From the NCBI GenBank assembly GCA_029862205.1, contig JAOTXT010000019.1, forward strand, positions 284 through 64,283: 64,000 nt of DNA, read 5' to 3'. Positions within the stretch are counted from its first letter, which is position 1. Each line of letters begins with the position of its first letter. Source of the DNA: Paracoccaceae bacterium (lineage in GTDB: Bacteria; Pseudomonadota; Alphaproteobacteria; Rhodobacterales; Rhodobacteraceae). The position numbers were made by a program, and so were the translations under genes. Below are positions 21,321-38,011 of this stretch, piece by piece. The notes under the pieces are model-generated. The model was given only the letters and a program-made list of their open reading frames with translations, was not told where the DNA came from and ran no database searches.

Positions 21321-23615
<2,295 letters not shown>

Positions 23616-23696
23616 GGTCCAAATGGGCCCAAGGAAAATCGAGGGGAAATCCTCGGACGATCACGGGGCGGCGCCCCAGGGACAGGAGACGAAGTG

Positions 23697-25595
23697 ATGA
23701 CGAGCTACAAGGAGATCTACGAGGGCTGGAGGGCGGATCCAGAGGCCTTCTGGATGAGGGCGGCGGAAGCGGTCGACTGGATCGAGAAGCCAACCCGTGC
23801 CCTCGACGACAGCGCAGCGCCCATGTATCGCTGGTTCTCGGACGGGGTTTGCAACACTTGCTACAACGCGGTCGACCGGCATGTAGAGCGCGGCCGCGGC
23901 GACCAGCCGGCGCTGATCCATGACAGCCCGATCACCGGCTCGAAATCGGTCCTCACCTATGCTGAGTTGAAGGACAAGGTCGCCCGGCTCGCCGGGGCGA
24001 TGACCCGGGCCGGCATCGAGAAGGGCGACCGCGTCATCGTCTACATGCCGATGGTGCCCGAAGCTGCAATCGCCATGCTTGCCTGCGCCCGGATCGGCGC
24101 GATCCACTCGGTGGTGTTCGGCGGCTTCGCGGCAAACGAATTGGCCGTGCGCCTGGACGACGCGACGCCGAAGGCGATCCTGGCCGCCTCCTGCGGGATC
24201 GAGCCGGGACGGGTGGTCAAATACAAGCCCCTGATCGATGCCGCGATCGAGCAAGCCAGCCACAAACCGGGCTTGGTCGTCATGCTCCAACGTCCGCAGG
24301 AAGAGGCATCCTTGGTTGAAGGCCGCGACGCGGAATGGGAGGCGTTCCAGGAAGGCGCCGAGCCCGCGGATTGCGTGCCCGTCAGGGGCGACGACCCGCT
24401 CTACATCCTCTACACCTCCGGCACCACGGGCCAGCCCAAGGGAGTGATCCGCCCGAACGCGGGCCACATGGTGGCGCTGATCTGGACCATGAAAAACCTC
24501 TACGGCGTCGACCCGGGCGAGGTCTTCTGGGCCGCGTCGGATGTGGGCTGGGTCGTCGGCCATTCCTACATCGTCTACGCGCCGCTTCTGACCGGGAACA
24601 CCTCGATCCTCTTCGAGGGCAAGCCGGTCGGCACGCCGGATGCCGGCACGTTCTGGCGCGTCATCTCCGAGCATGACGTCAAGGCGCTGTTCACCGCGCC
24701 CACCGCCTTCCGGGCGATCAAACGCGAGGACCCGAACGGCGAATTCGTGCGCAAATATGACCTGTCGGGCTTTCGCACCCTGTTCCTGGCGGGCGAGCGG
24801 GCCGATCCGGCGACCATCGAATGGGCCGAGGCTCAATTGGGCGTGCCGGTGATCGACCACTGGTGGCAGACCGAGACCGGCTGGGCGATCGCTGGAAACC
24901 CAATGGGGATCGAGCACATGCCTGTAAAGCTGGGCTCACCCACGGTGGCGATGCCGGGATACGACATTCAAATCCTCGACGACGGAGGAAATCCGGTCGC
25001 CGCGGGTGAACTTGGTGCCATCGCTGTGAAGCTGCCCTTGCCTCCAGGCTGCCTGCCGACGCTCTGGAACGCTGACGAGCGGTTCCTCAAGAGCTATCTC
25101 GACACCTTCCCCGGCTATTACGAGACCGGGGACGCGGGGATGATGGACGAGGACGGCTACGTCTACATCATGGCGCGCACCGATGACGTGATCAACGTCG
25201 CCGGGCACCGCCTTTCGACTGGAGGGATGGAAGAGGTCTTGGCCGGGCACCCCGATGTGGCCGAGTGCGCCGTGATCGGGATCTCGGACGATCTGAAGGG
25301 GCAGCTTCCGCTCGGGTTGCTCTGCCTCAATGCCGGCTGCAACCGGCCGCACGATGAGATCGCCAAGGAATGCGTTGCCCGGGTGCGCCAGGAGATCGGC
25401 CCTGTGGCCGCGTTCAAGCTGGCCTGCGTTGTCGACCGGCTACCCAAGACCCGGTCGGGCAAGATCTTGCGCGGGACCATGGTCAAGATCGCCGATGGCG
25501 AGGCGTACAAGATGCCCGCGACGATCGACGACCCGGCGATCCTGGACGAGATCACGCAAGCTCTTTCCGGGATCGGATACCCCGCGAAAGCGTAG
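23697..25595 (+). CDS. prpE: Propionyl-CoA synthetase
   Basis: YTSGTTGQPKG, DHWWQTETG, RLPKTRSGKILRG; lies in the propionate cluster. Confidence 0.9.
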   Translation: MTSYKEIYEGWRADPEAFWMRAAEAVDWIEKPTRALDDSAAPMYRWFSDGVCNTCYNAVDRHVERGRGDQPALIHDSPITGSKSVLTYAELKDKVARLAGAMTRAGIEKGDRVIVYMPMVPEAAIAMLACARIGAIHSVVFGGFAANELAVRLDDATPKAILAASCGIEPGRVVKYKPLIDAAIEQASHKPGLVVMLQRPQEEASLVEGRDAEWEAFQEGAEPADCVPVRGDDPLYILYTSGTTGQPKGVIRPNAGHMVALIWTMKNLYGVDPGEVFWAASDVGWVVGHSYIVYAPLLTGNTSILFEGKPVGTPDAGTFWRVISEHDVKALFTAPTAFRAIKREDPNGEFVRKYDLSGFRTLFLAGERADPATIEWAEAQLGVPVIDHWWQTETGWAIAGNPMGIEHMPVKLGSPTVAMPGYDIQILDDGGNPVAAGELGAIAVKLPLPPGCLPTLWNADERFLKSYLDTFPGYYETGDAGMMDEDGYVYIMARTDDVINVAGHRLSTGGMEEVLAGHPDVAECAVIGISDDLKGQLPLGLLCLNAGCNRPHDEIAKECVARVRQEIGPVAAFKLACVVDRLPKTRSGKILRGTMVKIADGEAYKMPATIDDPAILDEITQALSGIGYPAKA

Positions 25596-25619
25596 GAGAG
25601 CGCGTCCGGACAATGGGGC

Positions 25620-25648
25620 TTGCGCCGGCGGGTAACCCGCCGGCGCAA
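25620..25648 (+). terminator. Intrinsic terminator after prpE
   Basis: ttgcgccggcggg-taa-cccgccggcgcaa (13-bp stem) followed by tttcatttt. Confidence 0.75.
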
Positions 25649-25907
25649 TTTCATTTTGCATGCAACGATCCGGGCTGCTGGCGCGTTGGTCTAGGCACGG
25701 CCCGTCGCTTCACGCTGGGCGGCGGTGATCGGAAGAGGGAAAGCGTTGTTTTGGCGCACCATTTAGAATTTATAAACCTTCCTTCCAATAGGATGGTCTG
25801 GTGCATGAGAGCCGCCTACCGGCAGCACCCGCGCCGACACGTCCATCTGCTCAGCGGCTTCCGGGCCCGTGTCATGGTGTTTCAGTGGCTAAAAAGCGAG
25901 ACGTAAC

Positions 25908-26405
25908 ATGAAGGGACGGACTTTTCTGGCTTTGGCCGCGGTCGTCTTGGCGATCGCTGGTTTGACATTCGATACTCACGCGTCGTCGGACTCGGAATTG
26001 CTCGTTGTGCGCCTCAGTGGCGGCGACGATCGGCCGAAGTTCAGCTTCACCGAGGAGGAGCTGCGCGCGCTGCCGCAGGTGAAGGTCGCCACAGCGACCG
26101 AATTTACCGACGGGGTGGTCGAGTTCGAAGGGCCTCTTGCGCGCGACGTGCTCGCGGCGGCGGATCTGGGACCAGCAGAGCTTGCGCGCCTTGTGGCCGC
26201 CAACGACTATTCGATCGAGGTGCCTGTCACTGACTTCCAAAACTACGATGTGATCATGGCGCTCGAGGCGGACGGCAACAAGCTGTCGCGGCGCGACAAG
26301 GGCCCAATCTGGGTGATCTATCCTCTCGACGACCATACGGAACTTCAGGATCCGTCCTACACGATCCGCCTCGTCTGGCAGTTGACGACCGTCGAGCTGC
26401 GTTGA
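25908..26405 (+). CDS. Periplasmic PruR-like pterin-binding protein (SUOX/MsrP molybdopterin-binding fold)
   Basis: Signal peptide; EFEGP..RDVL, AANDY, RRDKGPIWVIYP and VWQL motifs; the protein contains no cysteine. Confidence 0.8.
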   Translation: MKGRTFLALAAVVLAIAGLTFDTHASSDSELLVVRLSGGDDRPKFSFTEEELRALPQVKVATATEFTDGVVEFEGPLARDVLAAADLGPAELARLVAANDYSIEVPVTDFQNYDVIMALEADGNKLSRRDKGPIWVIYPLDDHTELQDPSYTIRLVWQLTTVELR

Positions 26406-28072
26406 AGATACCCATCAGCATCACGCGCGGCCTCGCTGCGGTCGCGCTGGTGGGCTTGATGATGCTCGCGATCCTGGGCTTTCGGGCGCAGGAGCAGGAT
26501 ATGCAGAACCTGAGCGACTACAGCCAGGAAGTGATCTATTGGAGTACGGCACAGGCGGAAGCCGAGCATGGGCGATTCGTCTCCGTCCTGGGGCAATTCG
26601 CCGTCGGCACGCCCAACGTCACCGCCGAGGACGTAAATCGGCGCTTCGATATTTTCTGGAGCCGGATCGCGCTGTTTCGCGAGGGCGATGTGGGGCGCCG
26701 GATCCGCGACTACGACAGTGAACTAAATGCGGTCGGAGTGATCCAAGAAGCCCTGAAAAAGCACGAGGACGCGGTCGTCAACATCTCGAGCGACACCCCG
26801 CCGGAAGTCTTCCAGGCGATCCTGAAGGACTTCAATGAAGCCGGGCAGAGGTTGCGCGCGCTATCGGTTAAAACCCTTGCCGGCGAGGAGAACCGTCTCG
26901 CCCGGGCCCGTGAATCGGTCCGCGACAGTGCCAGGCTGACCTGGATGTTCTCGATGGCCGCGCTCGCGCTATCGTTTCTCCTGATGGGGATCATGCTGAT
27001 CGAAACTCGGCGCTACCGGCGCATGGCACAGGAGAGCGCTGACCTTGCGGCACGCGCCGAGGCCGCAAGCCAGGCGAAGTCGCGGTTCTTGACCATGATG
27101 AGCCATGAATTGCGCACGCCGATGAACGGCGTGCTGGGGTTGCTCGCCCTGGTCCGGCAGACGGCGCTCAACGATCGCCAGGTGCGCCTGGTCGATCAGG
27201 CGGAGCGATCGGGGCGTCAGATGAGCCTGTTGCTCGCCGACATTCTGGACTTCTCCGACCTGCAGAGCGAAAGCCTGGTGATGTCGCGCGAGCTGTTCAG
27301 CCTGGCGGAACTGGCGGACTCGGTGAAGGAAGCTTTCGGCCCGATCATCGAGCGCGAGGGTGTCGAGGTCATGATCGACGCCGATCGCCAGACGACCCGC
27401 CGCGCCGCGGGCGACTTGGTGCGGTTGCGCCAGGTTCTGGGGCATTTCCTCACCTTCCTGGTCGATGTGGTCGGCACGCGCGACGTGCGGTTGACGCTCA
27501 CTTGGGGTGAGAGCGGCATTGAAATGGCGATCGACGCCGCGGTGCGCAGCAGCGATCAACCCGGCTGGCAGCCCGAGGCGATGTTCGGCCGCGGCTCGGC
27601 GGAATATGACGATTTCGCCTCCGACTCGCTGGGACCGATGATCGCGCGCGGACTGATCAGCCTCATGGGTGGATCGGTCTCGCTCAGCCGCCCGGTCTCC
27701 GGCCGCGCGAAGGTGTCTGTTTCGGTGCCGATGGACCTGACCCGCGAGCGCACGAAGTGCATTCGCATCGAGGCGGATACCATCACGGTCGAGGCGATGC
27801 TGGCGGCGCTGCTGCGCAAGCTCTCTTGGCCGGTCTACGAACCCGGGGTCGCCAATCAGCAGGTATCAGCGATCCTGATGGAGGCCGGAGGTGATTCCGA
27901 GCCGGCGCGCGCCGCGCGGCTTCGCGCCGAGAACCCCTCGGCACGCCTGGTAGCGATCGGTTCGCCGCTCAGGCCCGATGTCTTCGATGCGGTCTGCACG
28001 CCGCCTCTGACCGCCGATCTGTTGGCAGAGTCTCTCAGGCGCGAGAACCAGCAACTGACGGAGGCCGTTTAG
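26402..28072 (+). CDS. Membrane sensor with intact HisKA H-box, degenerate ATPase domain and C-terminal pseudo-receiver
   Basis: Two TMs around a periplasmic domain containing WSTAQAEAE (W-X7-E). H-box FLTMMSHELRTPMNGVLG intact. N-box reads RLRQVLGHFLTF (no Asn), there is no DxGxG, and G2 reads DSLGPMIA. Confidence 0.85.
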   Translation: MKIPISITRGLAAVALVGLMMLAILGFRAQEQDMQNLSDYSQEVIYWSTAQAEAEHGRFVSVLGQFAVGTPNVTAEDVNRRFDIFWSRIALFREGDVGRRIRDYDSELNAVGVIQEALKKHEDAVVNISSDTPPEVFQAILKDFNEAGQRLRALSVKTLAGEENRLARARESVRDSARLTWMFSMAALALSFLLMGIMLIETRRYRRMAQESADLAARAEAASQAKSRFLTMMSHELRTPMNGVLGLLALVRQTALNDRQVRLVDQAERSGRQMSLLLADILDFSDLQSESLVMSRELFSLAELADSVKEAFGPIIEREGVEVMIDADRQTTRRAAGDLVRLRQVLGHFLTFLVDVVGTRDVRLTLTWGESGIEMAIDAAVRSSDQPGWQPEAMFGRGSAEYDDFASDSLGPMIARGLISLMGGSVSLSRPVSGRAKVSVSVPMDLTRERTKCIRIEADTITVEAMLAALLRKLSWPVYEPGVANQQVSAILMEAGGDSEPARAARLRAENPSARLVAIGSPLRPDVFDAVCTPPLTADLLAESLRRENQQLTEAV

Positions 28073-28950
28073 TGGACGCGCGCAATGCAAATGTACCAGG
28101 GAGTATACCGGGGGGACTACCAGGGGGATTAGACGTGATGCTCGACGGCTTGCGCGTTCTGCTCGCCGAGGACAATCCCACCAATCAAATGGTGGCGACC
28201 CAGATGCTCGAAAGCCTTGGCGCCTCGGTTACCATTGCGAATGATGGCGCCGAGGCGCTGGAAATCGTGGAGACCGGTGATTTCGATTTGATTCTGGTCG
28301 ACATCGAAATGCCGCGGGTAAGCGGGATCGAGCTCTTACGCCGCTTGCGCGCGCGTGGCGATTCGCTCGCTGAGAAGCCAATGGTCGCGCTGACAGCCTA
28401 TGTCATGCGTGAACACCGCGCAGCCATCGCGGCCGCGGGGGCGGACGGCGTGATCGCCAAGCCAATCCTTTCGATCGAGCAGTTCGGATCGGAGATCCGC
28501 CGGTATATGCACAAGCGCCCGGCACCGTCCGCCAAGCCGCCGGGTCATCCGGGCGCAAGCGTCCACGGCACCGATGCGGCAGGTCCCAATGCGGACGCAT
28601 TGGCTGTGCCGGTGATCGACAGGGGCATCTACGACACCTTGGCCGAGACGATTGGCCCGACTGCCATGGACGAACTGCTAGAGAAGGTCGTGTCAGACAC
28701 CCAGAACGCGCTGGACCGCCTGATCCATGCGGAGGATCCTTTGGACCTGGATGAGATCCGCGCGGTCAGCCACATCTTGATTTCGGTCGCCGGCGCGATC
28801 GGCGGCCAGCGCGTTCAGGATGCGGCCAAAGCGGTCAACGCAGCCGCGCAGCAGGCGGACAATGCGGCAACCGCCGAACACCTGCCTCGCCTTACCGGCA
28901 ACATCCGTGACATGCTGGCCCAGATCAGTGAGCAGGCCTCTGCCCGCTGA
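28072..28950 (+). CDS. Response regulator, REC + Hpt-like domain
   Basis: LLAEDN, LVDIEMP (phospho-Asp), LTA, KP; C-terminal helical domain with SHILISVAG (His retained). Confidence 0.88.
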   Translation: MDARNANVPGSIPGGLPGGLDVMLDGLRVLLAEDNPTNQMVATQMLESLGASVTIANDGAEALEIVETGDFDLILVDIEMPRVSGIELLRRLRARGDSLAEKPMVALTAYVMREHRAAIAAAGADGVIAKPILSIEQFGSEIRRYMHKRPAPSAKPPGHPGASVHGTDAAGPNADALAVPVIDRGIYDTLAETIGPTAMDELLEKVVSDTQNALDRLIHAEDPLDLDEIRAVSHILISVAGAIGGQRVQDAAKAVNAAAQQADNAATAEHLPRLTGNIRDMLAQISEQASAR

Positions 28951-29143
28951 GGGGCATACCCACCATTTCCTGAAAGGCCTCCTCTCGGCCTGATCGGCGT
29001 TCAACTGGCCCGAGCACGCAGCACCGCGTTCGGGCACGAGGACATTCGCAACATACGATCACGCCTCAGCGGCGGGTGGAACAATCGCAACCCTCCCGGC
29101 GGAGCCAGACCCTGTTCAGGCCTGCAGGGGCGAATTGCCAGTC

Positions 29144-29259
29144 CTAAACCAAAACCGTTTCAGACTGAATCAGTCTGAAAAAGGATTTTGGTCCAGACTC
29201 ATATGTTTGAGCAAATGCCTCAGATCAGACTGGCTCAGTCTGATCCGGTTTTGCTCTAG
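29144..29259. repeat. 116-bp palindromic intergenic element (RIME/Bru-RS-like MITE)
   Basis: Imperfect TIRs: ctaaaccaaaaccgt versus revcomp ctagagcaaaaccgg (12/15). Two internal palindromes: ttcagactgaatcagtctgaa (29159-29179) and gatcagactggctcagtctgatc (29223-29245). Confidence 0.7.
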
Positions 29260-29298
29260 CGACCAGACGGCGCAGGACGTCACCACCTACACACGGGC

Positions 29299-29330
29299 AA
29301 AAAATCCGCCCCGGCCGAAACCGGGGCGGA
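29299..29330 (-). terminator. Intrinsic terminator on the minus strand
   Basis: Minus strand TCCGCCCCGG-TTTCGG-CCGGGGCGGA-TTTTTT. Confidence 0.88.
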
Positions 29331-29435
29331 CTACCCGCCAGGGGTAAGTAGACTTGCCCGCGAGAACCGCCACGGAGCGGTTGTGATAACGGGGGAGATA
29401 CCGCGCCGCACCGACCCTGCGAGAAAGACAAGTTT
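29299..29435 (-). ncRNA. Candidate small RNA (~130 nt)
   Basis: ORF-free segment between a CtrA-like box and a strong terminator, with internal hairpins (AACCGC-TCCGTG-GCGGTT) and a C-rich tract (CTCCCCC). The 5' boundary is an estimate. Confidence 0.4.
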
Positions 29436-29452
29436 CTGATAGACGATACGTG

Positions 29453-29468
29453 GTAAAGGAATGGTTAA
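29453..29468 (-). promoter_or_regulatory. CtrA-like binding site
   Basis: Minus strand TTAA-CCATTCC-TTTAC versus the TTAA-N7-TTAAC consensus. Confidence 0.5.
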
Positions 29469-29515
29469 GCGCACCGAGGTTTCTCGCGGTCCTTGCGGCA
29501 CAGCGCCGGGCCGGC

Positions 29516-29854
29516 TCAAAAGATCGACAGATCGAGCGGCCGCGACTGGCCCAGCCAGATCACATGTTGCGTATGGTCTGCCAGATGCTCCCCCGTTTCC
29601 GCATGGGCGAAAACGGTTAGCTCACCCCGGTTCAGCGCCAGCCAGGGGATGACCTCGGCAAACGCCCCGGGTGGCACCGAAAGCTGGCAGCTGCCCGTTG
29701 GGTGCGGACCGACCGGATCGTCGTGCATCCGGCCCATCGCAACGCCGAAACGCCCGGCCGAGGCTTCGCACAGGGCGCGTGCCGCCTCCTTCCTTTCGGC
29801 GTCGAAGTAGACGTGGGCATGCCAGCCCGTGATCGTGTCGATATCGCCCATCAC
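29516..29854 (-). CDS. DOPA 4,5-dioxygenase family protein
   Basis: WHAHVYF, VGPHP, WLALNRGEL.VFAH, DH..H..WLG. Confidence 0.9.
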   Translation of the reverse strand: MMGDIDTITGWHAHVYFDAERKEAARALCEASAGRFGVAMGRMHDDPVGPHPTGSCQLSVPPGAFAEVIPWLALNRGELTVFAHAETGEHLADHTQHVIWLGQSRPLDLSIF

Positions 29855-33054: not shown

Positions 33055-33594
33055 ATGGAAATGCAGGGCGAGCGCTTGATCGAGGCCAGCCGCAACGAGG
33101 TCTGGACCGCGCTCAACGACCCGGAGGTTTTGAAGAGCTGCATCCCCGGCTGCGAGGAGATGGAAAAGACCTCCGCGACCGAGTTCACCGCGACCGTCGT
33201 CCAGAAAGTCGGGCCGGTCAAAGCGCGGTTCAAGGGCGCGGTCGAGCTCTCGGACATCGTGCCTGGCGAAAGCTACACGATCAGCGGCGAGGGCAAAGGC
33301 GGCGCCGCGGGCTTCGCGCGCGGCGGCGCAAAGGTGACCCTGGCAGATCAGGACGGCGGCACGCTGCTCAGCTACGCGGCCGAGGCACGGGTTGGCGGCA
33401 AGCTGGCACAACTCGGCAACCGGCTGATCAACGGCTTCGCGAAAAAAGTGGCGGCGGATTTTTTCGACCGCTTCCAGGCCGTGGTCCAGGGCGACACGCC
33501 GGAAGCCGAAAAGGCGGATGCGGACGCGGCAGAGGGCGGCGACGCCCCGCCCGAAGAACAGAAAAAAGGCTGGCTCAAGCGCATGATCAGCTGA
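33055..33594 (+). CDS. coxG: CoxG (SRPBCC) family protein
   Basis: [42 protein letters not shown]. Confidence 0.9.
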
Positions 33595-33631
33595 GCCGGC
33601 GATCAGGATCACGATCAGGGAGGAGACAAAA

Positions 33632-34099
33632 ATGCCATCCATCAGCATGACCGTGAACGGAAAATCCGTTTCCGGCGAGGTCGAGGGCCGCACACTGCTT
33701 GTGCAGTTCCTGCGCGAGGATCTGGGCCTGACTGGAACGCATGTGGGCTGCGACACCTCGCAATGCGGCGCCTGCGTCGTGCACGTGAACGGCGAAAGCG
33801 TGAAGGCCTGCACCATGCTGGCCGCCTCGGCCGACGGCGCCGAGGTCGCCACGATCGAGGGCATGGCCAATGCGGATGGCTCGCTGGGCGTGATCCAGCA
33901 GGCCTTCCAGGACCATCACGGGCTTCAGTGCGGCTTCTGCACACCCGGCATGGTGATGTCGGCCGCGGACCTCCTGCAGAAGAACAAGAACCCCTCCGAG
34001 GGCGAGATCCGCGAATGGCTGGAGGGCAACATCTGCCGCTGCACCGGCTACCATAACATCGTCAAGGCGATCCAGGCCGCCGCCGCTGCTGGCGCCTGA
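33632..34099 (+). CDS. coxS: [2Fe-2S] small subunit of xanthine-dehydrogenase-family enzyme
   Basis: [10 protein letters not shown]...[15 protein letters not shown]. Confidence 0.93.
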
Positions 34100-34113
34100 G
34101 GGAGGATATCGCG

Positions 34114-36483
<2,370 letters not shown>

Positions 36484-36497
36484 GGGAGGGAGAACAG

Positions 36498-37277
36498 ATG
36501 TATAGCTTCGACTATGTGAAACCGGGCTCGATCGACGAAGCGGTCGCGGCCCTTCAGGCCGAGGACGCACAGGCGTTGGGTGGCGGGCAGACGCTGATCC
36601 CGACCCTGAGGCAACGGCTGGCCCAGCCCTCGGTCCTGGTGGATCTGGGCGGGTGCCTGGATGCGGGCGTCGCCTCGCAAGATGGCGGATGCCGGATCGG
36701 CGGCGGAGCGACCCACGCCTCGGTCGCGGCATCGGCGGATGCGCCGAAATGGCTGCGGGCGGTTGCCGATGGCATCGGCGACCCGCAAGTGCGCAATCGC
36801 GGCACCATCGGCGGCAGCCTCGCCAACAACGACCCGGCCTCGGACTATCCGGCGGCGGTGCTGGGTTCGGGCGCCGAGATCAGCACCAATGCGCGCACGA
36901 TCGCTGCGGATGACTACTTCCAGGGCATGTTCGAGACGGCGCTCAATGAGGGCGAAATCATCACCGGAGTGACCTTCCCGAAGCTCGAGGCGGCGAACTA
37001 TCAGAAGTTCGACCAGCCGGCCTCGCGGTTCGCCTTGGTCGGCGTCTTCGTCGGCAAGGGCGCGGGCGGGGTGCGGGTCGCAGTGACCGGGGCTTCTGAA
37101 AGCGGCGTCCACCGCTGGGCGGACGCCGAGGCGGCGCTCGCAGGCAACTTCTCGACGGATGCTGTGCCGGGCGCGCCGTCGGCGGACGGCGTGATCAGCG
37201 ATCTGCACGGCTCGGCCGAGTACCGGGCACATCTGGTCGCGGTCTTGACCCGCCGCGCCGTCGCCGCCGCAGGGTGA
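36498..37277 (+). CDS. coxM: FAD-binding medium subunit
   Basis: Start MYSFDY after a GGAGGGAG RBS; LGGGQTLIP, RNRGTIGGSLANNDP, GSAEYRAHL. Confidence 0.92.
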   Translation: MYSFDYVKPGSIDEAVAALQAEDAQALGGGQTLIPTLRQRLAQPSVLVDLGGCLDAGVASQDGGCRIGGGATHASVAASADAPKWLRAVADGIGDPQVRNRGTIGGSLANNDPASDYPAAVLGSGAEISTNARTIAADDYFQGMFETALNEGEIITGVTFPKLEAANYQKFDQPASRFALVGVFVGKGAGGVRVAVTGASESGVHRWADAEAALAGNFSTDAVPGAPSADGVISDLHGSAEYRAHLVAVLTRRAVAAAG

Positions 37278-38011
37278 GCGCGGGTATCGCAGTGATCGCG
37301 GAGGCGGATACCGCCTCCGCTTCGGCCCCACCAACCGATGCCACGATCGAGGTCGCTGGCAGCCGGGTGGTGTTGCGGCCGTCGGGCGCATTCTTCTGGC
37401 CCGAGCGGGCGTTGTTGGCTGTGGCGGATCTGCACCTGGGCCGGGCCGAGCGGACGGCTCGCGAGGGCGGCGATCTGCTGCCGCCCTTTGAATCGATCGA
37501 CACGCTCGACCGGCTCGAGGCCGAGATCATGGCCCTGGCCCCGCGCATGGTGGTTTGCCTGGGCGACAGTTTCGACGACCTGGCCGCGGCGCGGAACCTG
37601 TCGGAGGATGTGCTGCTGCGGATCGGGCGGCTGGCCGCGGGACGGAAGTGGTGCTGGATCGCCGGCAATCACGACCCAGGACCCGTGGAATTGCCGGGCA
37701 CCCATTTGGCCGAGCTCCGCCTAGGCCTGTTGAATTTCAGGCATATCGCGTTGTCGCGTCTCGGCGCCAGCGGGGGCGAGATTTCAGGCCACTATCACCC
37801 AAAGGCAAAACTGATCCGGCGGGGCACCAGCGTGACACGGCGCTGCTTCCTCAGTGACGGGCGCCGGGTCATCCTGCCTGCCTTCGGCACCTATACCGGC
37901 GGGCTCGACGTGATGGACGGGGCTTTCGATCCTCTGGTCGGGCCAGACGGAACTGCCTGGCTGCTGGGAAAACAGGTGACAGGGATCGCCCGGTCCCACC
38001 TTAGAAAATGA
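37274..38011 (+). CDS. pdeM: Ligase-associated DNA damage response endonuclease (metallophosphoesterase)
   Basis: ADLHLG, LLPPF, CLGDSFDD, IAGNHDP, ISGHYHP, ILPAFGTYTGGL. Confidence 0.85.
   Translation: MSAGIAVIAEADTASASAPPTDATIEVAGSRVVLRPSGAFFWPERALLAVADLHLGRAERTAREGGDLLPPFESIDTLDRLEAEIMALAPRMVVCLGDSFDDLAAARNLSEDVLLRIGRLAAGRKWCWIAGNHDPGPVELPGTHLAELRLGLLNFRHIALSRLGASGGEISGHYHPKAKLIRRGTSVTRRCFLSDGRRVILPAFGTYTGGLDVMDGAFDPLVGPDGTAWLLGKQVTGIARSHLRK

Follow-up and report, generated by a model that had tools for sequence, protein, structure and literature searches.

Pterin signalling through the periplasmic protein PruR has been worked out for one output only, the turnover of cyclic di-GMP (c-di-GMP) by DcpA. 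In Agrobacterium tumefaciens, a single operon encodes PruR, a secreted, cysteine-free protein of the SUOX fold, followed by DcpA, a sensor with two transmembrane (TM) segments and a periplasmic domain of ~150 amino acids (aa) that carries the WX7E motif (Feirer 2015, PMC4488946; PMC11194511). Crystal structures of the A. tumefaciens protein show the pterin sandwiched and hydrogen-bonded by residues N102, Y104 and W160, and among reduced pterins PruR prefers tetrahydromonapterin (PMC11194511). Genome searches with hidden Markov models identified >5,500 PruR-linked pairs, and in 23-29% of them a TorS/BaeS-type kinase takes the place of GGDEF/EAL domains; these pairs, often found near response-regulator genes, were named PruR-DTB (Greenwich et al. 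2024, PMC11194511). A 2026 review repeats the class and presents as an example the Ruegeria pomeroyi protein WP_011045932.1, whose HATPase is complete and whose receiver retains the Asp (PMC13259868). A further point of reference is RetS of Pseudomonas aeruginosa, whose degenerate HATPase domain lacks G-boxes and which does not autophosphorylate, but instead acts through its HExxT motif as a phosphatase on the receiver (REC) domain of GacS and blocks GacS autophosphorylation (PMC5992135). Here, we describe a three-gene operon, g1-g2-g3, in a 64-kb stretch of contig JAOTXT010000019.1 from a Paracoccaceae bacterium (the window), in which a PruR homologue and a DcpA-type sensor domain are joined to a predicted pseudokinase and a REC-Hpt phosphotransfer protein, and we weigh the proposal that the pseudokinase works in the manner of RetS.

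The product of g1 is, by sequence comparison, a member of the PruR family. Searched with phmmer against all PDB sequences, it matched solely the five PruR entries (7kp2, E = 3.6e-20; 7kos and 7kou, 1.1e-19; 7rkb, 1.2e-17; 7kom, 3.8e-12), and it scored 26.9 bits against Pfam Oxidored_molyb (PF00174; cut-off 24). The counterparts of the three A. tumefaciens pterin ligands, N99, Y101 and W157, do not vary among 13 diverse PruR homologues, DcpA-linked and kinase-linked alike. Two further motifs, DKGP and VWQL, lie at residues 130-133 and 156-159, respectively, and a signal-like stretch at residues 1-25 suggests that the protein is exported, with a mature size of ~140 aa, as for PruR. In a protein search, g1 retrieved only members of its own clade, none of them a DcpA-linked PruR.

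That g1 binds a ligand other than a reduced monapterin-type pterin, or even acts as a redox enzyme, nevertheless deserves consideration as an improbable alternative. The PW motif of PruR, in which a Trp substitutes for the cysteine of molybdenum cofactor (Moco) enzymes, is kept “in most homologs” (PMC11194511), yet this position reads E-F in g1 and varies across its clade, from P to E or D and from W to F, Y or W. Additionally, Pfam places g1 in Oxidored_molyb, and NCBI labels its homologues “molybdopterin-dependent oxidoreductase”. Against such a function stand the invariant N/Y/W triad, the restriction of PDB sequence matches to PruR proteins, a mature size that fits PruR and not MsrP or SUOX, and the cysteine count of 0, which leaves the protein without a Moco ligand. 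An assignment of g1 as a Moco enzyme of the MsrP/YedY type was ruled out on these grounds of cysteine content, size and PDB matches.

The second gene, g2, encodes a two-TM sensor whose all-helical, 151-residue periplasmic loop is, as judged from sequence comparisons, homologous to the corresponding domain of a GGDEF-EAL protein linked to PruR. The comparator was a PruR-adjacent PAS-GGDEF-EAL protein encoded on a Rhizobium plasmid (L089), obtained by tblastn against plasmids. Residues 1-215 of g2 aligned with this protein at a BLASTP E-value of 8e-7, with the WX7E motif as defined for DcpA-type domains (PMC11194511) in register with WTIAQAPSE of the comparator and with RFDI likewise in register; a profile of 22 g2 homologues (38-94% identity) aligned with the N-terminal 200 residues of the same protein over 187 columns, with an hhalign probability of 97% and an E-value of 7.7e-11. 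Residues W47, E55, R81, F82, D83, W86, S87 and R88 are invariant in those 22 homologues, far above chance. The RFDI element is thus common to g2 and the DcpA-type protein of L089, and it takes the form RFDILWSR in two PruR-DTB sensors with real kinase domains (L021, L029). In its input half, the g1-g2 pair therefore matches PruR-DcpA in operon layout, secreted pterin protein, two-TM sensor, WX7E-bearing periplasmic domain and pterin-contacting residues; the differences lie in the EF that replaces the PW motif, in a third gene, which encodes a REC-Hpt protein, and in the g2 output, which is composed of HisKA, a pseudo-CA (catalytic and ATP-binding) domain and a pseudo-REC instead of the GGDEF-EAL of DcpA.

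The output half of g2 retains its H-box in full. Pfam HisKA was detected in all 120 of the best g2 homologues listed (38-94% identity, ~550 aa), and H235, E236 and T239, which supply the phospho-accepting His and the HExxT transmitter-phosphatase motif, are invariant in the 22 aligned homologues. HATPase_c, by comparison, was detected in only 2 of the 120 (P0098 and P0110) and scored 16 bits in g2 itself, under the cut-off of 26.4. In alignments of 22 and 24 homologues, the N, G1 and G2 boxes are missing across the whole family, and the column of the G1-box Asp is not conserved, being S or G in several members. When residues 301-556 were used to query 1.84 billion representatives exhaustively with HMMER, only 133 proteins emerged, 82 of them at E<=1e-10; nearly all share the length and architecture of g2, and ordinary kinases barely register. 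The CA domain has thus lost its ATP-binding motifs family-wide, and g2 is predicted to be a pseudokinase. This sets it apart within the PruR-DTB class. The pair fits the definition of that class, a PruR with a DcpA-type periplasmic domain on a TorS/BaeS-like transmitter, and the HisKA half of g2 indeed matches TorS, its best NCBIfam model (1.1e-33, vs 5e-30 for LuxQ). However, its ATPase half is degenerate and its receiver a pseudo-receiver, whereas the published example and the DTB sensors of four comparison loci (L086, L021, L029 and L019) have an intact HATPase_c.

The top PDB sequence match of g2 is the kinase region of RetS (E = 5.6e-20), which also ranks among the best matches by fold (TM-score 0.72, 28% identity). 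Both proteins are membrane sensors with an intact H-box and HExxT motif, a HATPase domain devoid of G-boxes, and appended receivers. RetS, however, has a 7TMR-DISMED2 sensor, two receivers of which REC2 is phosphorylatable, and an unlinked partner, whereas g2 has a PruR/DcpA-type two-TM input, a single non-phosphorylatable receiver and a partner gene in the same operon; g2 is accordingly an analogue of RetS and not a member of the RetS family.

AlphaFold2 (AF2) modelling of the last 100 residues of g2 gave a confident structure (pLDDT 91, pTM 0.83), and the top Foldseek matches of this model in the PDB were nearly all receiver domains, at TM-scores of 0.6-0.7. On the basis of the model and these matches, the C-terminal domain of g2 is a receiver fold without the phospho-accepting Asp. 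Sequence alone does not detect this pseudo-receiver: the g2 family aligned in register with the g3 receiver by hhalign, but not significantly (E 0.7). Among the Foldseek matches was Rec1 of ShkA, a Caulobacter crescentus hybrid kinase that is also the second-best fold match to g2 and likewise has a pseudo-receiver after its CA domain. ShkA differs in being soluble and catalytically active and in binding c-di-GMP through its pseudo-receiver; g2 shows no evidence of c-di-GMP binding. An annotation artefact that had split a single TorS-like gene was also considered and ruled out, because all relatives conserve both the C-terminal domain of g2 and the boundary between g2 and g3.

The third gene, g3, encodes what is by its domain composition a canonical REC-Hpt protein. 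It scored 85 bits against Pfam Response_reg and 23.7 bits against Hpt, just below the cut-off of 24.6, and it matched the NCBIfam models for the C-terminal regions of TorS and ArcB at 1.5e-34 and 4e-32. The active-site residues of its receiver, D77 included, are canonical and invariant, and H234 of the Hpt domain is invariant in 20 homologues. Compared with unorthodox HK-REC-Hpt kinases such as TorS, ArcB and BarA, in which one histidine kinase (HK) polypeptide carries all modules, the window module is split over g2 and g3, its CA domain is degenerate and a pseudo-receiver is added; the one-polypeptide form does exist in relatives, as a soluble partner described below. An earlier note, made from the letters of the window alone, had described the same parts: a cysteine-free, exported PruR-like protein with NDY, DKGP and VWQL motifs, a DcpA-related sensor domain with WX7E and RFDIFWSR in its periplasmic loop, a pseudokinase, and a REC-Hpt partner. 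The comparisons presented above bear out each of these assignments, and they produced none of the observations that the note had named as speaking against its reading.

Proteins of the g2 type form a compact family of ~100 clusters, found in Paracoccaceae and other Rhodobacterales. The closest relative from a species representative is only 44% identical and the nearest assembly, GCA_905169065.1, 94% identical; the source organism is thus known only from metagenome assemblies. A pruR gene adjoins the g2-type gene in 23 of 24 related loci. In all relatives, including one on a 586-kb Paroceanicella plasmid, pccA, mcm, maeB and prpE directly precede the operon, from which we conclude that the loci are orthologous. 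What follows the sensor gene differs. Most relatives, including the cultured Paroceanicella profunda (WP_138578001.1), encode next to the pseudokinase a soluble, input-less hybrid kinase of 510-545 aa, a single chain in which HisKA and a HATPase_c that is genuine (70-73 bits) precede REC and Hpt, and then a sigma-54 activator that scores 530 bits against the LuxO model vs 375 bits against NtrC. The window g3 aligns with, and is orthologous to, the C-terminal half of these hybrid kinases. The exceptional locus without an adjoining pruR (L008; WNWL01000002.1, 8001-12156) is labelled Oceanobacillus sp., a Firmicute, and yet, at 69% G+C, carries genes for a pseudokinase of the Rhodobacterales type, a REC-Hpt protein and a LuxO-like regulator, with no PruR homologue within 8 kb upstream; the contig is probably mislabelled or a contaminant.

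The outgroup, Pelagibius sp. Alg239-R121 (L019, 7574-13908), has the same operon layout: PruR is followed by a DcpA-type sensor, in which the kinase is intact and the receiver degenerate (Asn for Asp), by a PAS-PAS hybrid HK-REC-Hpt kinase and by a LuxO-like regulator. Because the N, G1 and G2 boxes of its sensor are intact in this layout, the dead-kinase state of the g2 family is derived, and the outgroup operon looks like the ancestral form, with two kinases in series before one lost its ATP site. A distance tree rooted on this outgroup places first the operons with the long partner and the LuxO-like gene, next those with a short REC-Hpt protein and the LuxO-like gene (L084, L002 and L008), and last those with a short REC-Hpt protein and no LuxO-like gene (the window, L081, L082 and L085). 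Besides the window, L081, L082/L083 and L085 share the layout without a kinase. By this order, the window represents the most reduced state: its operon encodes neither an ATP-binding kinase domain nor an output regulator, and the rest of the 64 kb was likewise found to contain no kinase core and no sigma-54 regulator.

Such stepwise reduction, together with an operon that lacks both phosphodonor and output, might suggest a decaying remnant: once the kinase core and the LuxO-like gene had been lost, the three genes would have ceased to signal and begun to turn into pseudogenes. We consider this very unlikely. All three open reading frames (ORFs) are intact, the catalytic and ligand residues are all retained, and the reduced layout is kept in lineages merely 48-60% identical. 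Comparison with the 94%-identical L081 locus revealed purifying selection on each gene, with dN/dS ratios of 0.083 for g1, 0.111 for g2 and 0.21 for g3 at a dS of ~0.3, which argues that the operon is not decaying.

We propose instead that g2 acts as a RetS-like, PruR/pterin-gated phosphatase or phosphate sink on g3, a model to which we assign a probability of roughly 55%. Pterin-loaded g1 would dock on the WX7E-bearing periplasmic domain of g2, as PruR does on DcpA, and would thereby switch the conformation of the HisKA/DHp region. Gated by its ligand in this way, g2 may either act as a transmitter phosphatase on D77 of g3 or accept the phosphoryl group from it, and perhaps also pair with and inhibit a genuine kinase, setting the level of phosphate on H234 of the g3 Hpt domain for transfer to a response regulator. 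In long-form relatives, the phosphodonor would be the kinase core fused to the g3 counterpart and the output the adjacent LuxO-like sigma-54 activator. In the window clade, the locus retains neither the kinase core nor the LuxO-like gene, so that donor and output would have to be encoded elsewhere, presumably within a multikinase network. The analogy with RetS follows from the lost ATP-binding boxes, by which g2 is predicted to be unable to autophosphorylate; RetS itself regulates a separate unorthodox HK-REC-Hpt kinase through phosphatase, phosphate-sink and heterodimer mechanisms.

Several points weigh against this proposal. Motif loss predicts, but does not prove, loss of ATP binding by g2. 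The operon has no phosphodonor, and a phosphatase would stand idle if g3 were not supplied with phosphate by a small molecule or by a kinase encoded elsewhere; given the linkage to propionate genes, an acyl-phosphate could be invoked as donor for the g3 receiver, although this is speculative. With EF in place of the PW motif, pterin binding in the g1 clade is a prediction only. For operons that combine a short g3 with a LuxO-like gene (L002, L008 and L084), the simplest wiring would run from g2 to g3 to LuxO and would need phosphorylated g2. Finally, our literature search found no biochemical or functional study of any PruR-DTB system.

The wiring of the short-form operons leads to the main rival reading, a forward four-step relay in which phosphate passes from H235 of g2 to D77 and then H234 of g3 and finally to a response regulator, along the lines of TorS or LuxQ-LuxU-LuxO. 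The H235 phosphate would come from residual, non-canonical use of ATP by the CA-like domain of g2 or from the CA domain of another kinase acting in trans, as in a split kinase, and PruR/pterin would tune the balance of kinase and phosphatase activities. This reading gains some support from the retention of the LuxO-like gene in short-form operons, which hold no other HK-like protein. It would also account for the invariance of H235, which a pure phosphatase does not strictly require, and for the fact that g2 and g3 together reproduce the domain order of TorS/ArcB; a metal might conceivably be bound by H348, the invariant residue at the N-box. We regard the forward relay as rather unlikely all the same. 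The N, G1 and G2 boxes are absent in every member of the g2 family, the G1-box Asp having drifted to S or G in several of them, and neither Pfam nor the exhaustive HMMER search links the CA domain to ordinary HATPase_c domains more than barely. RetS, the nearest solved relative, is inactive as a kinase, and the genuine kinase in the operon of most relatives makes a second active kinase unnecessary.

The earlier note had inferred a pterin-responsive phosphorelay from the locus. The modules of such a relay stand, but the relay itself is incomplete, and since the operon contains neither an ATP-binding kinase domain nor an output regulator, we infer pterin-responsive phosphotransfer from the modules only. 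The statement in the same note that no functional characterisation was known agrees with our literature search, yet the novelty is lower than it implied, the class having already been published as PruR-DTB. What appears new is the kinase-dead, RetS-like version. The main texts of the two publications (PMC11194511, PMC13259868) mention no family-wide pseudokinase, pseudo-receiver, in-operon input-less hybrid kinase, LuxO-like output or kinase-less form; the dataset of the 2024 study may already list the family.

Two better-known phosphotransfer systems offer partial parallels. In the Vibrio LuxP-LuxQ/LuxU/LuxO pathway, a periplasmic ligand-binding protein likewise acts on a membrane transmitter, followed by REC, Hpt and a sigma-54 activator; the differences are that LuxQ is an active kinase/phosphatase, that LuxP has the fold of periplasmic binding proteins, that LuxU consists of just one Hpt domain and that the window has no LuxO-like gene. 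In the Escherichia coli TorT-TorS-TorR system, a periplasmic binding protein governs the all-helical sensor of an HK-REC-Hpt transmitter, but TorS is one active polypeptide, whereas the window has a split relay and a dead kinase, and its g1 is unrelated to TorT. More tentatively, the family may define a dedicated pathway for extracellular pterin in marine Rhodobacterales, in which PruR/pterin acts on a RetS-like dead kinase, which acts on a soluble hybrid kinase and through it on a LuxO-like regulator, in the style of quorum sensing with excreted pterin as the cue; the window lineage would retain the sensor and a REC-Hpt hub without a kinase in cis, embedded in an unlinked multikinase network. 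If true, this would be the first pseudokinase to serve as sole ligand-sensing entry to a two-component pathway outside Gac/Rsm.

The wider interest of the locus lies in the roughly one-quarter of PruR-linked sensors that are of the kinase type, none of which was found with a functional study. At least one sizeable branch of these sensors is a conserved predicted pseudokinase with a pseudo-receiver, and an explicit wiring diagram is suggested by what its relatives encode alongside it, a hybrid kinase without an input domain and a LuxO-like activator. Kinase-to-kinase regulation of the RetS-GacS type would gain a new input and reach a new phylum-level group. Both forms have cultured relatives, namely Paroceanicella profunda D4M1 for the long form and Limibaculum sp. 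M0105 for the short form. The database names “molybdopterin-dependent oxidoreductase” for g1 and “histidine kinase” for g2 both mislead.

Features of the operon and its borders, in coordinates of the window
Feature	Position	Strand	Description
g1	25908-26405	+	165 aa, ATG start; PruR-type periplasmic pterin-binding protein, degenerate SUOX/Oxidored_molyb fold, no cysteine
g1 signal-peptide-like N-terminus	25908-25982	+	MKGRTFLALAAVVLAIAGLTFDTHA; residues 1-25, basic n-region, hydrophobic core, T-H-A (hydrophobicity scan and sequence)
g1 TEFT	26097-26108	+	In the place of the PruR PW motif (Trp substituting the Moco cysteine)
g1 N99-D100-Y101 (NDY)	26202-26210	+	N99/Y101 correspond to A. tumefaciens PruR N102/Y104 (pterin hydrogen bond and stacking); aligns with LNDY of 7kos
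g1 W157	26376-26378	+	Equivalent of W160 in A. tumefaciens PruR, which forms the second side of the sandwich around the pterin
g2	26402-28072	+	556 aa, TTG start; PruR-DTB-type TM sensor, predicted pseudokinase
g2 domain order	26402-28072	+	TM - DcpA-like periplasmic domain - TM - HisKA - degenerate CA - pseudo-receiver
g2 TM1	26429-26482	+	Residues 10-27
g2 periplasmic domain	26483-26935	+	Residues 28-178; 151-aa loop, all-helical (AF2), DcpA type
g2 WX7E	26540-26566	+	WSTAQAEAE, W47 to E55; invariant in 22 and in 24 homologues (two alignments)
g2 RFDIFWSR	26642-26665	+	Residues 81-88; invariant in the g2 family
g2 TM2	26936-27001	+	Residues 179-200
g2 HisKA/DHp	27074-27268	+	Pfam HisKA, 62.6 bits
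g2 H-box	27101-27121	+	S-H235-E-L-R-T239-P; phospho-His and HExxT transmitter-phosphatase motif intact
g2 degenerate CA (HATPase_c-like)	27410-27736	+	N-box Asn replaced by invariant H348; no DxGxG (G1); G2 reads FASDSLGP
g2 pseudo-receiver	27752-28036	+	Residues ~451-545 (AF2 and Foldseek); E494 at the phospho-Asp position, G520 for T/S, K of the K-P pair absent
g3	28072-28950	+	292 aa from GTG 28072; soluble REC-Hpt phosphotransfer protein
g3 receiver	28156-28467	+	E33, D34, D77 (28300-28302), T108 and K130 canonical and invariant
g3 Hpt	28672-28932	+	H234 (28771-28773) within SHILISVAGAIG
Terminator candidate	25620-25648	+	G+C-rich hairpin (13-bp stem, 11 G-C pairs), then T-run; downstream of prpE (propionyl-CoA synthetase)
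Two 23-nt palindromes	29158-29180, 29223-29245		Core CAGACTGnnTCAGTCTG; each then T-run on one strand; between convergent g3 and a DOPA-dioxygenase-like gene

The ORF calls place the three genes, tightly linked on the + strand, at 25908-28950. The earlier note had described them as overlapping by 4 bp and 1 bp; the ORF coordinates and the 4-bp g1/g2 overlap (TTGA) are confirmed, whereas the 1-bp g2/g3 overlap holds only if g3 starts at GTG 28072. It is rendered uncertain by a stronger Shine-Dalgarno sequence (AGGGGGA, 28120-28126) upstream of alternative starts at GTG 28135 and ATG 28138, and by the lengths of g3 homologues (258-278 aa), with which the perhaps 270-271 aa obtained from these later starts agree. 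A g2-g3 gap of 62-65 bp is at least as likely as the overlap.

The hairpin behind prpE is likely a terminator that divides this gene from the operon. The palindromes beyond g3, whose core has four strand-matches in the window against 0.04 expected and no copies elsewhere in the window, probably form a bidirectional terminator pair that closes the operon, although they may alternatively represent a repeated palindromic element. Flanked in this way by the prpE terminator and the palindromes, g1-g2-g3 look like one transcription unit. An Rfam scan of 25400-29700 gave no match, and a sigma-70 promoter scan upstream of g1 found none, an uninformative result at 64% G+C. Similarly, a search of the window and 19 related loci for the sigma-54 consensus GG-N10-GC (>=9/11 matches) returned none and pointed to no target of the LuxO-like regulator. 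Among public sequencing runs, the locus occurred only in DNA runs from sediment and marine metagenomes and in no RNA run.

Upstream, 21321-25595 holds the propionate/methylmalonyl-CoA genes, namely pccA, mcm, an NADP-malic enzyme gene with a PTA domain and the propionyl-CoA synthetase gene, the set that also stands ahead of the operon in loci L081-L087. Two long ORFs at 25370-25906 (+) and 25872-26336 (-) overlap the prpE-g1 intergenic region and the antisense strand of g1, respectively; these are spurious ORFs typical of high-G+C DNA and are without counterpart in the L081 gene calls. Some 4 kb downstream of the operon, synteny with the L081 gene calls delineates a Moco-dependent cluster of the xanthine-dehydrogenase/CO-dehydrogenase family (33055-38011), comprising a coxG-like gene and genes for a 2Fe-2S subunit, a MoCoBD large subunit (34114-36483) and a FAD-binding subunit. 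A link between this cluster and pterin sensing is speculative.

Beyond the window, PruR homologues were encountered on 640 PLSDB plasmids, 398 of them conjugative, from Klebsiella (264), Pseudosulfitobacter (62), Escherichia (57), Salmonella (29) and others. In four annotated plasmid records (L086, L087, L088 and L090), the neighbour of PruR is a HisKA-containing gene and not a GGDEF-linked one. For example, PruR is found with a hybrid HK on a K. pneumoniae IncFII plasmid, with a HisKA-HATPase-REC-Hpt protein and an HD phosphohydrolase on A. tumefaciens pAtAF1_95, and with a HAMP HK, an OmpR-type response regulator and CsgG/HfaB on a Brucella plasmid. The presence of kinase-linked PruR on such plasmids indicates that PruR-kinase pairs are mobile in clinical Enterobacteriaceae.

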